Positions 32,944 through 38,232 of a stretch of 64,000 bases of DNA are shown here, one piece after another. The stretch is from an uncultured Candidatus Saccharibacteria bacterium (GTDB taxonomy: Bacteria > Patescibacteriota > Minisyncoccia > Phycocordibacterales > UBA2100), in NCBI GenBank assembly GCA_964437185.1, contig CAYTFU010000001.1, forward strand, positions 26,304-90,303. The letters run 5' to 3'. Each line of letters opens with the position of its first letter. Position 1 is the first letter of the stretch. Both the position numbers and the translations under genes were made by a program. Under the pieces are notes generated by a model, which worked only from the letters and a program-made list of their open reading frames with translations, was not told the origin of the DNA and made no database searches.

Positions 32944-33276
32944 ATGAAAACGCCCGAAGGCGTGCTGGTAATGTACCTTGGATTTCCAGAAATGCCAAGC
33001 GGTTGCGCCAAGGAGTCAACCATATATACTGACACTATGAAGCGGCGGCAATATACAATCAAAACTCGATTCGGCGCTCACGTCTGTGTGTTTGAAAAGG
33101 ACACGAAAGGATACCTCGTGGTCGCCAAAGATATTAAGGGCGTCGTTACCTGGGGCAAGAACATCGCTCACGCGAAAGCAATGGCCAAAGAAGCACTCGA
33201 GCTGATGATCGAAACAACCGCCATCGAATCCCCGTTATCTGTTGCAGTGAAGAACAACAAATATCAGATGGCATGA
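32944..33276 (+). CDS. hicB: HicB-family antitoxin
   Basis: YTIKTRFGAHVCVFEKDTKGYLVVAKDIKGVVTWGKNIAHAKAMAKEALELMIE matches the HicB (UPF0150) fold pattern. A possible start is MKRRQY at 33036. It overlaps hicA by ATGA. Confidence 0.65.
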   Translation: MKTPEGVLVMYLGFPEMPSGCAKESTIYTDTMKRRQYTIKTRFGAHVCVFEKDTKGYLVVAKDIKGVVTWGKNIAHAKAMAKEALELMIETTAIESPLSVAVKNNKYQMA

Positions 33277-33503
33277 GTGTCATTCCGATAATCGGAGTTC
33301 GAGTAATGCTCCGTGTCCTCCAGAAATCTGGCTTTTATGTGGTGCGACAAACTGGGAGTCATTTGAGGCTCGTAAATCCGTCAATCAATAGATCCGTCAC
33401 CCTTCCCATGCACGCGGGCGACTTGTCGCGAAAGATGACTGCAGCCATCCTGAAGCAGGCCGGGATATCGACTCTTAACTTTCTTGAGTTACTCGGCAAG
33501 TAG
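33273..33503 (+). CDS. hicA: HicA-family mRNA interferase toxin
   Basis: VLQKSGFYVVRQTGSHLRLVNPSINRSVTLPMHAGDLSRKMTAAILKQAGI matches the HicA/YcfA consensus (K.GF...RQ.GSH....H...). Confidence 0.7.
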   Translation: MSVIPIIGVRVMLRVLQKSGFYVVRQTGSHLRLVNPSINRSVTLPMHAGDLSRKMTAAILKQAGISTLNFLELLGK

Positions 33504-33605
33504 GTAAAGCTAGTGTTCAGATTTTTAATGGACGCGTGGAAGACACGGCACGTATGCGCCTTTCATACCGTAACAAGAGGTACCAGCGATTAAGCAAGAC
33601 ATGAC

Positions 33606-33633
33606 CTCCCGAGGTTAAACCTCGGGAGGTACC
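33606..33633. terminator. strong hairpin (cctcccgaggtt/aa/acctcgggagg) between convergent hicA and gene 33652..34152
   Basis: A perfect 11-12 bp inverted repeat with no clear U-tract on either side; possibly a bidirectional terminator or structural element. Confidence 0.4.
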
Positions 33634-33651
33634 ACATGCGCCTTGTTGGTC

Positions 33652-34152
33652 TTACTGTAATTTTGTGATGCTCACGACTGTCTCCTCTACGCAACCGCCG
33701 GCCGGATAGCTCCCAGCTATATACTCATCGAGTACTATTCGCACTGTATCTCCATAAGAAACATCAGCATCTTTAACTTCCGAATTGCCGATACAAATTC
33801 CATTTACCACCCATTGAGGATCCGAATGCGGGAGCCGCGTGCTGCTTTTGGCTATTTCGAGCATAGGTCCACTTATTTCTCCACTAAGAAACTTTCCCTC
33901 AAGCGCCGCGTGACCCTTGAAGGTAATTTTGAAGTTTTCTTCACGCGGAAGATCTACCTTCGGTTCGAAAGGTTCGACTTTTACTACCTCAAATTCCCCC
34001 ACCAAATCCCCCACTTGAATTTTTTCGACATCGATATAAGAGAAGTATTGCGGTGAATGAGGTGGAGATTGGTTTATCCTGTTCTGAAAAACGAAGTATC
34101 CACCTACCGCAGCGAGAACAATCACGCCAGCAAAGATGATCCGCCTATTCAT
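33652..34152 (-). CDS. hypothetical membrane-anchored protein
   Basis: 166 aa with an N-terminal TM helix (IIFAGVIVLAAVGGYFVF) and a soluble domain with no known motif. It is inserted between rpsG and fusA together with hicBA. Confidence 0.4.
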   Translation of the reverse strand: MNRRIIFAGVIVLAAVGGYFVFQNRINQSPPHSPQYFSYIDVEKIQVGDLVGEFEVVKVEPFEPKVDLPREENFKITFKGHAALEGKFLSGEISGPMLEIAKSSTRLPHSDPQWVVNGICIGNSEVKDADVSYGDTVRIVLDEYIAGSYPAGGCVEETVVSITKLQ

Positions 34153-34233: not shown

Positions 34234-34695
34234 CTACCAGGCGAAGTGCGCAAACGCTTTATTCGCTTCCGCCATTCTGTGAGTGGTTTCTTTCTTGGTC
34301 GCAGCAGCACCTTCGCCCTTGTGAGCAGCTCGGAGTTCTGCAAGAAGACTCTCATGCATTGGCTTGCCCTTCGTACCCTCAGCAGCCTCTACGATCCAGC
34401 GCATGCCGAGCGAGAGCTTGCGATTTGGATTGACCTCGCGGGGAACCTGGTAGTTGGCTCCACCGACGCGGCGAGAACGGACCTCCACAGATGGAGACGC
34501 CTTCTCAAGCGCTTCTTCGAGGAACATGACGGGGTCGCCATCTTTCTTGAGCTCTTCCATCACCTTGTACACGATCTTGCGTGCAGTGTCTTTCTTACCA
34601 CGCTCCATCACGTAGTTGATGAGCTTTGCAACCTTAAAAGATCCGTACACTTCGTCCGGCTGAGGCTGCATTCTGTTTTTTACTGGGCGGCGCAT
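34234..34695 (-). CDS. rpsG: 30S ribosomal protein S7
   Basis: 153 aa; PDEVYGSFKVAKLINYVMERGKK ... VEVRSRRVGGANYQVP, classic S7. Confidence 0.9.
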   Translation of the reverse strand: MRRPVKNRMQPQPDEVYGSFKVAKLINYVMERGKKDTARKIVYKVMEELKKDGDPVMFLEEALEKASPSVEVRSRRVGGANYQVPREVNPNRKLSLGMRWIVEAAEGTKGKPMHESLLAELRAAHKGEGAAATKKETTHRMAEANKAFAHFAW

Positions 34696-34812: not shown

Positions 34813-35229
34813 TTACTTCGCCGCTTTTGGCTTCTTCGCACCGTAAAGTGATCGGCCGCGGCGACGCTTCTCGATTCCCGAAGTATCGAGCTTGCCACGC
34901 ACAATCGTATAGCGCACGCCGATGTCCTTCACGCGACCTCCGCGGATAAGTACTACTGAGTGCTCCTGGAGGTTGTGACCCTCTCCTGGGATGTAGGCAG
35001 TCACTTCCATGCCGTTGGTCAAGCGTACACGAGCGATTTTACGGATAGCGGAGTTTGGCTTACGAGGAGTCTTCGTGGTCACACGAGTGCACACGCCGCG
35101 CTTGAAGGGGGCAGCGTAGAAAGATGGACGATTTTTGAGCGTATTAAAACCGCGCGAAAGAGCGATGGTCTTGGTGCGCCAGGTCTTCTTGACCCGCGCT
35201 TTGCGCGTAAGCTGATTTATTGTTGACAT
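34813..35229 (-). CDS. rpsL: 30S ribosomal protein S12
   Basis: [15 protein letters not shown] ... [53 protein letters not shown]. The ORF track starts 14 codons upstream at 35271; the MSTINQ start matches the S12 consensus. Confidence 0.9.
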
Positions 35230-35397
35230 TGAATAGAAACTCTTACGAGCGAAGCGAGTTAGAGGCTTCATTCATCCCGTGCATAGACACGGGAGGCTCA
35301 ATTAAAAATCCCCGAAGGGAGTGCGAGGAGTATAGCCGCTAATTCGCCTATGCGCAAGACTACCTTGTAGCTAGAAATAAAAGGTACCGAAATCCCT

Positions 35398-36650
35398 CGG
35401 GTAGATAGTAATTAAGGGTACCGTAATCGCCATATGAATATGGCGCACAAACAGGGGGTGTTTGAGGAGAAGTTGGAAGCGTACCTGAAGGGACCAAAGA
35501 AGCGCAGAAGCGAGATCCTAGACGCGGTGGTGGAGGTCTCGGGACTCACCAGAAAAGGAGCGATCAGGCGGTTCCGCGCGATGCAGATGCGTGATCCACG
35601 TGCCGCAGAGAGGCGGGGACGGCCTCGGACGTACACGTTCGATGTCATTGCTGCACTGAAAGAGGTCTGGGAGATCGGGAGTGAGTCCTGCGGAGAGAAT
35701 CTTCATCCACAAATCGCTGAATACGTCGATATCCAGATACAGGAGAATCAGTGGAAACATGGTGAGGTGGCCACGCACAAACTGCGGAAGATGAGTGTTG
35801 GGTCAGTGAAGACATATGTCGGCCAGTTCGCCCGCACGCGCCGGAACTTCGGCGGCAAGAGCACGACACAGAAAAGCAGCGTCATTTCGATGGTGCCGAT
35901 CCGTATGGACGGGTGGGACAAGGCGGAGACTGGTGTGACACAAGTCGACACAGTCGCGCACTGTGGAGCTGCGAACGCCGGAGACTTCGACTTCACCACG
36001 AACGGCACTGATGTAGCCACACTGTGGGGATCCCGCCGCGCACAGTGGGACAAGGGGCAAGAGACGACAAAGATCAGTCTTGAGGCCATGCGGAGGGACT
36101 CCCCGTTTCCATGGACAGAGATGCACCCCGATTCCGGAACCGAGTTCATCAACCACCATGTACTCGCGTACGCGAAGGATACGAAGCTGCGCGTGACCCG
36201 CTCGCGTCCATACCACAAGAACGACAACTGTTTCGTGGAGGAGCGTAACGGTCACGTGGTCCGCGCGTACGTGGGATATGAACGATTCGACGTACGGGCA
36301 ACAGTCGACGCACTCAACGATCTATATGACGTACTAACTCCATACCTGAACCACTTCATTGCGTCGAGACGCATTGTTTCCAAGGAACGCATTGGTGCGC
36401 GATGGAAAGTGAAGCGCGAGAAGGTCGCGAAAACTCCGTACCAACGAGTGCTTAACCGCAGTGACGTGACCGACGAAGTGAAAAACAAGCTCCGCGGTGA
36501 ACATTCAAAGTTGAATCCGGCGACGATGAAAAAGGAAATTGACCGTTTGACGAAACGCGTCCATGATATCCAGCGGCGATACGGGAACCCGCAGAAATTA
36601 TCAAAAGCTGCCTGAAATTCTTGGTACCCTTTTATTACTATCTACTACGG
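35398..36650 (+). mobile_element. IS element (~1.25 kb) with ~25-bp imperfect terminal inverted repeats, inserted between rpsL and a Tat-secreted protein gene
   Basis: Left end gggtagatagtaattaagggtacc (35398-35422). Right end ggtacccttttattactatctactacgg (36623-36650), whose reverse complement is ccgtagtagatagtaataaaagggtacc. The ends bracket a single transposase ORF. Confidence 0.6.
35434..36615 (+). CDS. DDE transposase (integrase-core/rve-like)
   Basis: 393 aa. The N-terminal region is HTH-like with RRGRPRTY. The catalytic core reads HPDSGTEFINHHV ... RSRPYHKNDNCFVEERNGHV (D..D....E spacing). Confidence 0.65.
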   Translation: MNMAHKQGVFEEKLEAYLKGPKKRRSEILDAVVEVSGLTRKGAIRRFRAMQMRDPRAAERRGRPRTYTFDVIAALKEVWEIGSESCGENLHPQIAEYVDIQIQENQWKHGEVATHKLRKMSVGSVKTYVGQFARTRRNFGGKSTTQKSSVISMVPIRMDGWDKAETGVTQVDTVAHCGAANAGDFDFTTNGTDVATLWGSRRAQWDKGQETTKISLEAMRRDSPFPWTEMHPDSGTEFINHHVLAYAKDTKLRVTRSRPYHKNDNCFVEERNGHVVRAYVGYERFDVRATVDALNDLYDVLTPYLNHFIASRRIVSKERIGARWKVKREKVAKTPYQRVLNRSDVTDEVKNKLRGEHSKLNPATMKKEIDRLTKRVHDIQRRYGNPQKLSKAA

Positions 36651-36654
36651 ACTA

Positions 36655-37122
36655 TCACTTACGCTCTCCCCGCCGCGGAGGAGCCACGTAATGAAACTGC
36701 TCAACGCGCACCCGGCCGTTTCTTTCCACACGTATAACCGCAATATCATTTGCCCCGCTCTTCTTCAATGTGCGGATCATGATCTTCTGGTCGTGCGTTA
36801 GTGAAATCGTTATATATGAATCCAACTTCTCATCAAATTCATTTGCATACGCGAAACCCTGAATCACCCGATCATAGGCTCGCACCCAGCCGGCCTTTAG
36901 GTCGTACTGGTACGTTCCTCCGAGACCGGCGATGTGCGCTGCCGCACGCTTATCGATACTCATAATGTCACTCGCACCTTCAACGACTCCGCCAACAATG
37001 TCCTGATCAGATGCCGTGCGCGCAGCATCGGCACCATGGGCTCCCATCGCCCCGAGCGCAGCGGTACCCGCAAGAAAGCGTCTTCGATTTATTTCACTCC
37101 CTTTTTCTCTTCCTTCGCGCAT
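36655..37122 (-). CDS. Tat-signal secreted protein (hypothetical)
   Basis: The real start MREGREKGSEINRRRFLAGTAALGAMGAHGA is a twin-arginine signal. The track ORF 36655..37551 extends upstream through the M50 gene in another frame. The stop lies 4 nt from the IS right end. Confidence 0.5.
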   Translation of the reverse strand: MREGREKGSEINRRRFLAGTAALGAMGAHGADAARTASDQDIVGGVVEGASDIMSIDKRAAAHIAGLGGTYQYDLKAGWVRAYDRVIQGFAYANEFDEKLDSYITISLTHDQKIMIRTLKKSGANDIAVIRVERNGRVRVEQFHYVAPPRRGERK

Positions 37123-37824: not shown

Positions 37825-38232
37825 TCAACGCTTGCCTTTGAGTGTAAGGACGCTCGCGCCGAGAACGTTGTTAATCTCAACCGCCTCCTTCAATAATACA
37901 TCAACGTCGCCCGCATACTTTGCGTCATAGGTCTTGGCAAGTAAAAGCCAATATCGAGTCTCGTTCGACGATTTGAGTGCAATCTCAAAGAATTTTATAT
38001 AGTCCCTCTTCGAGCTCGCAGACTGAGCCTCAACGACGTTGGCTCCGACCGAACTTGAGCAACGAACTAACTGGTCCGACAACGCCCAAAGAGTTCTGTT
38101 CTCGCGAAAATGGTCGCAAAGCCGAAAAATAGAGACAGAAAACTTGATGAGGCGACTCACAAAATCTTTCTTCCATTTTGCTTTGTCATTCTCCATTCTA
38201 CCTTCGACTTTTTGATTTCCCATGCTAGGCAT
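37825..38232 (-). CDS. four-helix-bundle protein of the 23S-rRNA-intervening-sequence family
   Basis: FVSRLIKFSVSIFRLCDHF...ALSDQLVRCSSSVGANVVEAQSASSKRDYIKFFEIALKSSNETRYWLLLA matches the TIGR02436-type consensus (GDQL.RS..SIGANI.EA......DF..K...A..E..ET.YWL.L). Confidence 0.6.
   Translation of the reverse strand: MPSMGNQKVEGRMENDKAKWKKDFVSRLIKFSVSIFRLCDHFRENRTLWALSDQLVRCSSSVGANVVEAQSASSKRDYIKFFEIALKSSNETRYWLLLAKTYDAKYAGDVDVLLKEAVEINNVLGASVLTLKGKR

Follow-up and report, generated by a model that had tools for sequence, protein, structure and literature searches.

The 64,000-nucleotide stretch of contig CAYTFU010000001.1 analyzed here (hereafter the window), from an uncultured Candidatus Saccharibacteria bacterium, carries an insertion sequence (IS) beside rpsL, the gene for ribosomal protein S12. 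The presence of an IS beside rpsL is itself ordinary. What is new is that this element belongs to an abundant, unnamed IS clade whose insertion is promoter-directed and orientation-specific. Very probably, these elements insert in one orientation, with their left end 5 to 6 bp upstream of a -35 hexamer of the sigma-70 type. The duplicated target bases then correspond approximately to promoter positions -40 to -36, the core promoter is left intact, and the transposase gene is divergent from the host gene. In our literature searches, whose coverage is incomplete such that prior work is possible, we encountered neither an account of this IS family nor one of an IS with the -35 region as its target.

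The placement rule emerged from the flanks of full-length relatives in species-representative genomes and metagenomes, wherein 70 dereplicated left flanks were read outward from the IS end and compared with 70 right flanks. Nearly every left flank reads as the 5-nt target duplication, then TTGNNN, approximately 17 nt, and TAnnnT. In 40 of the 70 left flanks a TTG begins at offset 5 or 6, compared with 0 to 4 flanks at any other offset (binomial P = 1e-36), and the TTG background elsewhere in these flanks is about 1.5 per offset. Likewise, position 7 is T in 59/70 left flanks, and TAnnnT starts at offset 28 or 29 in 51/70 (P = 3e-48). When the flanks are anchored on TTG, the logo obtained is TTG[A/C]C[A/T]-17-TAnnnT (T in 27/40, A in 29/40, final T in 28/40), with G enriched at the TGn position. 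The spacer measures 16 to 18 nt in all 40 flanks bearing both motifs, as expected for hexamers and spacing of the sigma-70 type. In contrast, the right flanks are free of signal in either orientation (no more than 0.15 bit per position). The called left neighbor gene is divergent from the transposase gene at 16 of 17 loci; called genes were used for this comparison because a permissive open reading frame (ORF) finder places outward ORFs on both flanks (35/40 versus 29/45) and thus does not discriminate between them.

We considered whether such a pattern could reflect tolerance rather than target choice, in that insertion would be random and only copies located just upstream of promoters would be tolerated in compact genomes. 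These genomes are indeed gene dense, and at the window site only 5 nt separated a stop codon from the -35 box. However, selection cannot yield single-nucleotide precision (offsets 5-6 and 28-29) plus a fixed orientation, and copies would also be expected in other neutral places, such as the DNA that separates convergent genes or follows terminators. The featureless right flanks also speak against survivorship, which we regard as most improbable. Even less credible is the notion that the promoter-like stretch is part of a longer IS that carries its own outward promoter. The motif does adjoin almost every copy, but outside the hexamers the 40-nt stretch is entirely different from one site to the next, the target duplications and contig breakpoints fall between the motif and the conserved IS sequence, and different host genes lie behind the motif at different loci. 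The likelihood of this arrangement is practically negligible.

The left flanks also reveal which promoter feature serves as the point of reference. In flanks with both hexamers, the distance from the IS to the -35 hexamer does not vary with the length of the spacer (r = 0.04), but that to the -10 hexamer does (r = 0.71), and thus the -35 position is the reference point. Among the 30 flanks that lack TTG at offsets 5-6, 21 nevertheless retain a -10 hexamer at 28 or 29, often as TGnTAnnnT. This finding indicates that placement is independent of a consensus -35 sequence. Moreover, the same placement is observed for a sister clade whose transposase is 39% identical and whose ends (CCTAATAGCTCA...TGAGCTATTAAG) are unlike those of the window element, although they too carry the motif twice at the left and once at the right. 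Its targets include TTGCAC-17-TATAAT, TTGACA-17-TATACT, TTGACT-17-TAGAAT, and TGGTCT-17-TATACT, and one of its copies, with the target duplication CCCAC, lies at offset 7.

A mechanism consistent with these data would have the transposase-end complex positioned by whatever occupies the -35 region, most likely RNA polymerase holoenzyme bound at the promoter, through its sigma region 4 or alpha C-terminal domain, or else the bend that it induces in the DNA. The ends are asymmetric, in that the left has two sites and the right has one, and this asymmetry would fix the orientation of insertion. Joining occurs with a 5-bp stagger, and the proximal joint lies at the -36/-35 boundary. The outcome would be a safe site that spares genes in very compact genomes. 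We tentatively favor the possibility that the holoenzyme recruits the transposase, which then integrates at the upstream edge of the -35 contact, because placement survives loss of the -35 consensus, because two clades with unrelated ends share the same geometry, and because the targets resemble a natural promoter population weighted to strong promoters.

Alternatively, the transposase itself might read promoter DNA, chiefly a TTGAC-like -35 element, with no involvement of RNA polymerase or sigma. Direct read-out of this kind would explain why the -35 element, and not the -10 element, serves as the reference and why TTG is the strongest single signal, and two N-terminal helical domains in the structural model of the transposase, which resemble helix-turn-helix (HTH) domains, could bind DNA. 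However, it does not easily accommodate the 30/70 sites where the expected TTG is missing and of which 21 keep a correctly spaced -10 element. Furthermore, the spread in -35 quality resembles that of natural promoters rather than that of a recognition site, the sister-clade ends are unlike their target, and a geometry shared by clades with 39% identity and unrelated ends is more easily explained by a conserved host factor. We consider direct read-out, the main rival to recruitment by the holoenzyme, possible but rather unlikely.

The genes served by the targeted promoters are of interest in weighing recruitment by RNA polymerase. They include a 16S ribosomal RNA (rRNA) gene (locus L151, identified with Rfam), the genes for tRNA-Phe, tRNA-Asp, and tRNA-Thr, and those for S15, L13, L31, a cold-shock protein, PyrG, a tRNA synthetase, SecD, PilM, and a pilin. 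The S12 promoter is targeted in at least three separate IS lineages, namely those of the window (duplication GACTA), L031 (TAGCA), and L116, where the duplications differ. That the targeted promoters are often very strong is an anecdotal observation made without a background set, and this prominence fits a model wherein targeting is driven by occupancy. An ATG is present at offsets 40-45 in 21/70 left flanks, such that many target genes are leaderless, and this placement independently supports the -10 hexamers as genuine.

Several findings weigh against the proposed targeting rule and its mechanism. Approximately 7 to 10 of the 70 left flanks carry neither motif, and the target promoters are predicted from sequence in uncultivated organisms. 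Most loci are on short metagenome contigs that are often chimeric, with an exact 5-bp duplication at only 9/75, and a few loci suggest that the duplication measures 4 or 6 bp or that the right end is ambiguous by 1 nt. There is one IS copy in the window, and an empty counterpart of its own insertion site was not encountered. The transposase showed no sigma-like domain, its N-terminus is a generic homeodomain-like HTH, and its contact with RNA polymerase is putative. Lastly, the ends of ISLbi1 (a single copy) and of elements of 1.8 kb from Bradyrhizobium and 1.7 kb from Burkholderiales, discussed below as more distant relatives, are too poorly fixed for their flanks to be judged.

Three additional features of the targeted sites were observed. 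First, in a clade with approximately 54% identity the IS end lies mostly 6 nt from TTG (12 flanks versus 3), whereas the clade of the window element prefers 5 nt (15 versus 8). This clade-specific 1-nt shift in target geometry is apparent when loci with the IS end CTACAACG are compared with CTACAAGG loci. Second, the host flank of L148 carries, about 30 nt outside the left end and within the spacer of the target promoter, a 9-nt copy of the IS terminus (CCTTGTAGC), which may be the scar of an earlier insertion or may be due to chance. Third, the leaderless targets, which include L064, L072, L074, L093, L101, L107, L111, and L147 (rpsO), have their ATG 6 to 9 nt after the -10 hexamer, which suggests that leaderless translation is common in these genomes of the Candidate Phyla Radiation (CPR).

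The window insertion conforms to the arrangement described above (Table 1). A complete promoter of the sigma-70 type, TTGCGC-17-TATACT (35357-35329, minus strand), separates the IS from rpsL, with its -35 hexamer at the modal position of the 70 flanks and a predicted transcription start near 35322. This promoter is homologous to the rpsL promoter of L031 (TTGCAC-17-TACACT), which is located beside another IS lineage. The initial annotation of this DNA had proposed that the element could supply or disrupt the promoter of the str operon. Indeed, the IS is the nearest upstream DNA, and native sequence from about -41 upward has been replaced by the A/T-rich IS end, with TTTTATTTCTAG at approximately -60 to -49. 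However, the -35/-10 pair with its 17-nt spacing is wholly outside the IS, and so the element neither supplies nor interrupts the core promoter. A consensus promoter scan detected no outward promoter in the IS left end. The scan missed the rpsL promoter because its TTGCGC matches at only 3/6 positions. Given also the homology to the L031 promoter, we judge an outward or disrupted rpsL promoter to be very unlikely. The arrangement seen at rpsL repeats at approximately 70 independent sites, and thus it reflects the target choice of the element. The replaced upstream DNA may affect the strength of the rpsL promoter, through UP-element-like effects or the displacement of regulator sites, and the insertion is probably close to neutral for rpsL.

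Before insertion, the gap between the rpsL -35 box and the stop codon of the upstream gene, which encodes a protein with a twin-arginine (Tat) signal, consisted of the 5 nt GACTA, and the IS landed there. The stop codon (36655-57, minus strand) adjoins the right copy of the duplication. Thus, a clean target-site duplication, which was not found by eye at first, is present; the right end of the IS lies exactly 5 nt from the stop codon rather than 4, and the left end is 133 nt from the rpsL ATG rather than about 170. An IS-free allele was not found, in that every contig in the database that encodes an identical S12 or Tat-signal protein carries the IS at this location.

Just after the predicted rpsL start, at approximately 35300-35318 on the minus strand, there is a small hairpin followed by a run of T residues (CTCCC-TTCG-GGGA + TTTTT). 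It is conserved in L031 (CTCCC-TTT-GGGAG + TTTTT) and may be an attenuator.

Table 1. Features of the IS insertion site between rpsL and the Tat-signal gene in the window.
Feature	Position	Strand	Remarks
rpsG, next after rpsL	34234-34695	-	Gene served by the rpsL-rpsG promoter
rpsL (ribosomal protein S12)	34813-35229	-	Pfam Ribosom_S12_S23, E = 6e-34; ATG at 35229
rpsL promoter, -10 hexamer TATACT	35329-35334	-	17-nt spacer; offset 28
rpsL promoter, -35 hexamer TTGCGC	35352-35357	-	Borders the left duplication copy; offset 5 from the IS end
Left target-duplication copy GACTA	35358-35362	.	Identical to 36650-54
Left terminal inverted repeat, outer motif CCTTGTAGCTAGAAATAAAAGGTACC	35363-35388	+	Conserved in all relatives
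Inner second copy of the end motif, left	35401-35428	+	82% identical to the outer copy, 34 nt apart
Candidate -10 element TACCGT of a near-leaderless transposase mRNA	35419-35424	+	Inside the inner repeat, 9 nt before the ATG
Transposase gene, 393 aa	35434-36615	+	Intact, single uninterrupted ORF
Right terminal inverted repeat, one clear copy	36623-36649	-	From motif search and end profiles
Right target-duplication copy GACTA	36650-36654	.	Adjoins the stop codon of the Tat-signal gene
Upstream gene with twin-arginine signal	36655-37122	-	TAT_signal, 23.0 bits versus cut-off 22.7, residues 10-28
Reconstructed IS-free junction			...CGCCTATGCGCAAGACTATCACTTACGCTC...

The limits of the element were set from the alignment of its relatives, from contigs that break at element edges, and from the target duplications. 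In the flank alignment, conservation begins at C[CG][TA]TGTAG, 4 nt outside the outer left motif, and stops at CTACT[ATG]CG on the right. Some contigs comprise the element alone (L047, 1,287 bp; L050 and L080, 1,285 bp each), and other assemblies break on its edges, wherein L030 and L031 end on the last G and L042 begins on the first C. Across 91 loci the element is 1,267 bp long at its shortest and 1,289 bp at its longest, and the modal lengths are 1,285 and 1,287 bp. The complete IS in the window accordingly spans 35363-36649 on the plus strand and is 1,287 bp long, with the ends 5'-CCTTGTAG...CTACTACG-3'. The initial annotation had correctly recognized an IS with inverted repeats and a DDE (Asp-Asp-Glu) transposase beside rpsL, as well as a genuine end motif that is inverted between the two ends. 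Its boundaries (35398-36660) and its length of 1.25 kb require correction, since 35398/35401 corresponds to the inner tandem copy of the motif rather than to the left terminus.

The end motif GTAGATAGTAAT..AAGGGTACC (GTAGATAGTAATWAARGGTACC), with up to three mismatches allowed, occurs three times in the 64 kb (35367-88 and 35401-22 on the plus strand, 36624-45 on the minus strand), where shuffled sequences predict 0. The terminal inverted repeats are 26 to 27 nt long and approximately 80% identical to each other, and the two-copy left end is kept both in relatives and in the sister clade. Neither a second IS copy nor a solo end was found in the window with tblastn and end profiles. A hairpin near 33606 had been suggested to be a related remnant, but nhmmer searches with the end profiles (--max, E <= 100) match only the three known copies, and the GGTACC that recurs near this hairpin is simply a 6-mer.

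The nine loci with exact 5-bp duplications in cis, among the 75 with both flanks, compare with 0.07 expected by chance. Duplications at sites other than that of the window include AGGGT, CGGGG, CTCGC, GAATA, GGAAT, CGGTC, TACTC, and CACTT. Two loci (L004 and L086) have a 6-bp duplication, and three others (L008, L147, and L149) yield 5 bp only when the terminal G is assigned to the target, which leaves a 1-nt ambiguity at the right end. For copies with identical transposases, left and right flanks on different contigs can be matched via GTGCC, CCCGG, GATGG, and TAGCG. This pairing across contigs indicates that short contigs are in many cases chimeras of different IS copies, which explains why most loci lack an in-cis duplication. 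In L126, one flanking pentamer (AACTA) is the reverse complement of the other (TAGTT). In the window, the linker between the two left repeats (35387-35400, minus strand) can form a short hairpin, CCGAGGGATTTCGG then TACCTTTTAT, that was called terminator-like by a scanner for leftward transcripts leaving the IS and is weakly conserved in relatives.

The protein of 393 aa encoded by the IS is a divergent DDE transposase with an integrase fold. Its ORF is intact and, as first noted, includes the motif YHKNDN...E. In a 102-sequence alignment of proteins with 35-90% identity, the catalytic residues D172, D233, and E269 (spacing D-60-D-35-E) are invariant, as is Y-H-K-N-D-N. The window protein reaches no curated Pfam or NCBIfam threshold; it scores 15.9 bits against the Pfam rve cut-off of 32.6, a cut-off that relatives exceed. 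An AlphaFold model of the transposase is confident, with a predicted local distance difference test score (pLDDT) of 82.6 and a predicted template modeling score (pTM) of 0.76. In the model, an HTH of three helices at the N-terminus (residues 4-51) is followed by a further helical domain (69-129), an RNase H-like core (168-308), a beta-hairpin, and then C-terminal helices. Its structural neighbors are integrase, IstA, and TnsB.

The transposase mRNA is likely to be leaderless and to start from the TACCGT located within the inner repeat, as judged from the sequence arrangement. The layout TAnnnT-N7-9-ATG is kept in relatives and in the sister clade, where it reads TAGTGT-N7-ATG, and at L056 the TACCGT fills the -10 position of a target promoter. 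If the predicted start is correct, autoregulation through binding of the transposase to the IS end would be possible.

A word-indexed search recovered more than 3,185 homologues of the transposase, all of them unnamed or annotated as "hypothetical protein," and many are located on contigs of 1,284 to 1,289 bp. An exhaustive search yielded 5,770 clusters at 50% identity with E <= 1e-3, including 500 with E <= 1e-30. Close relatives reside in Patescibacteria (Saccharibacteria, Nomurabacteria, Paceibacterota, Kaiserbacteria, and Minisyncoccales), and more distant ones are found in Spirochaetes. On the basis of these sequence comparisons, the family is a very large unnamed clade of single-ORF integrase-fold DDE elements, mainly in Patescibacteria (CPR). 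Two transposase sequences, P0037 and P0047, are each present in identical form at five or more different genomic sites. The occurrence of identical transposases at many sites implies that the element has been mobile recently and is not a domesticated gene. Likewise, a single-copy domesticated gene, which had been offered as the counter-case to an IS, does not fit the thousands of relatives with conserved termini. With bounding inverted repeats, a target duplication, a DDE core, and multiple sites all in evidence, the window element is an intact, probably active IS. No phage matches to the transposase were found, and thus a phage origin is unsupported.

The closest annotated relative is an "ISNCY-like element ISLbi1 family transposase" of Leptospira biflexa, which is 32% identical over 380 aligned positions (residues 9-386 versus 16-390, E = 1e-57). 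Unnamed "ISNCY family" and "DDE-type integrase" genes on plasmids of rhizobia and the Burkholderia group are similarly distant. ISLbi1 is like the window element in having a single ORF, repeated end motifs near its termini, and a transposase that aligns end to end. However, its transposase has 442 aa, about 1.49 kb lies between its repeats, two motif copies are present at both ends, and the end motif is of another sequence and polarity. The ISLbi1 group in ISfinder comprises elements of approximately 1.4 to 1.5 kb with a 5-bp duplication; the window IS has a duplication of 5 bp and, at 1,287 bp, is shorter than this size. Promoter targeting by ISLbi1 is not described in the literature that we found. 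Judged by these alignments, the window element would be at best a distant new subgroup of the ISLbi1 group (ISNCY).

Other IS families are also similar in some respects. IS481 and IS3 elements share the integrase core and the DD(35)E spacing, and the size (1.0-1.3 kb) and single ORF of the window IS are IS481-like; unlike both families, its termini are not TG...CA. Relatives of the window protein match the models NF033577 and NF033516 weakly. Membership in IS481 was rejected, as the window protein gives no NF033577 match even at E <= 10 and its relatives score 25-50 bits versus 224. The IS3 family was likewise rejected given an NF033516 score of 27 bits over 77 residues versus a cut-off of 160 and the lack of a frameshifted two-ORF arrangement.

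The closest behavioral analogue in bacteria is the ISAjo2/IS1202 group of "dif-site hunters," which are single-protein DDE elements that generate a 5-bp duplication and insert in one orientation at a distance of 5 bp from where XerC binds (PMC10132070). These elements carry an additional internal transposase site near their ends, and contact between the transposase and the bound host protein has been proposed (PMC10132070). Their transposase is TnsB-like (441-457 aa) with a beta-barrel, their termini are TGT...ACA, and their target is dif/pdif (PMC10132070). The window IS shares the ISAjo2/IS1202 geometry of orientation, approximately 5-bp distance, and 5-bp duplication, although relative to a -35 element instead of a XerC site. 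Membership in this group was rejected because the window protein has 393 aa, the termini are CC...CG, and a clear inner site is confined to the left end. No sequence relationship to ISAjo2/IS1202 is detectable.

Among more distant systems, the integrase of Ty3 targets RNA polymerase III promoters bound by TFIIIB, and Tf1 and Ty1 integrate in promoter-proximal locations. These are eukaryotic retrotransposons with known tethers, whereas the window IS is a bacterial DNA transposon whose tether we infer. Tn7 requires TnsA, TnsC, and TnsD and is directed by TnsD to one locus, attTn7. It resembles the window element in its precise, orientation-specific insertion, 5-bp duplication, asymmetric multi-site ends, and rve-fold transposase, and its TnsB is a structural neighbor of the window transposase. 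In contrast with Tn7, the window IS has a single protein and an entire class of target sites.

If experiments bear out the placement rule, this family would represent a single-protein bacterial transposon that finds promoters at a fixed nucleotide and orientation without damage. This would account for the ability of an IS to multiply in CPR bacteria despite their extremely compact genomes, and each left end would mark a -35 box, thereby providing a promoter map from sequence for uncultivated phyla, including many leaderless genes. It would also permit a direct test of whether a bacterial transposase uses the transcription machinery as its target selector, and it would suggest a compact tool for promoter-proximal DNA insertion. 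Should an RNA polymerase tether be confirmed, the system would be a bacterial counterpart of Ty3/TFIIIB targeting, every IS copy would mark an active promoter, and the excess of rRNA, tRNA, and ribosomal-protein promoters would reflect polymerase occupancy.

Scans of the window for Rfam families and tRNAs gave no matches. The str operon is split, both in the window (33273-34152) and in L127, such that rpsL-rpsG is followed by a gene for a 166-aa hypothetical protein, an opposite-strand hicA/hicB-like toxin-antitoxin pair, and then fusA. Between the convergent hicA-like gene (33273-33503, plus strand) and hypothetical gene (33652-34152, minus strand) lies a perfect palindrome, ACCTCCCGAGGTT-AA-ACCTCGGGAGGT (33605-33632), which looks like a bidirectional terminator unrelated to the IS. 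On the other side of the element, a gene at 37825-38232 (minus strand) encodes a PF05635 four-helix-bundle "23S rRNA intervening-sequence protein." PF05635 is also listed for L144 and L128, and in L144 it is the left neighbor of a sister-clade IS; its proximity to the IS is probably a coincidence.

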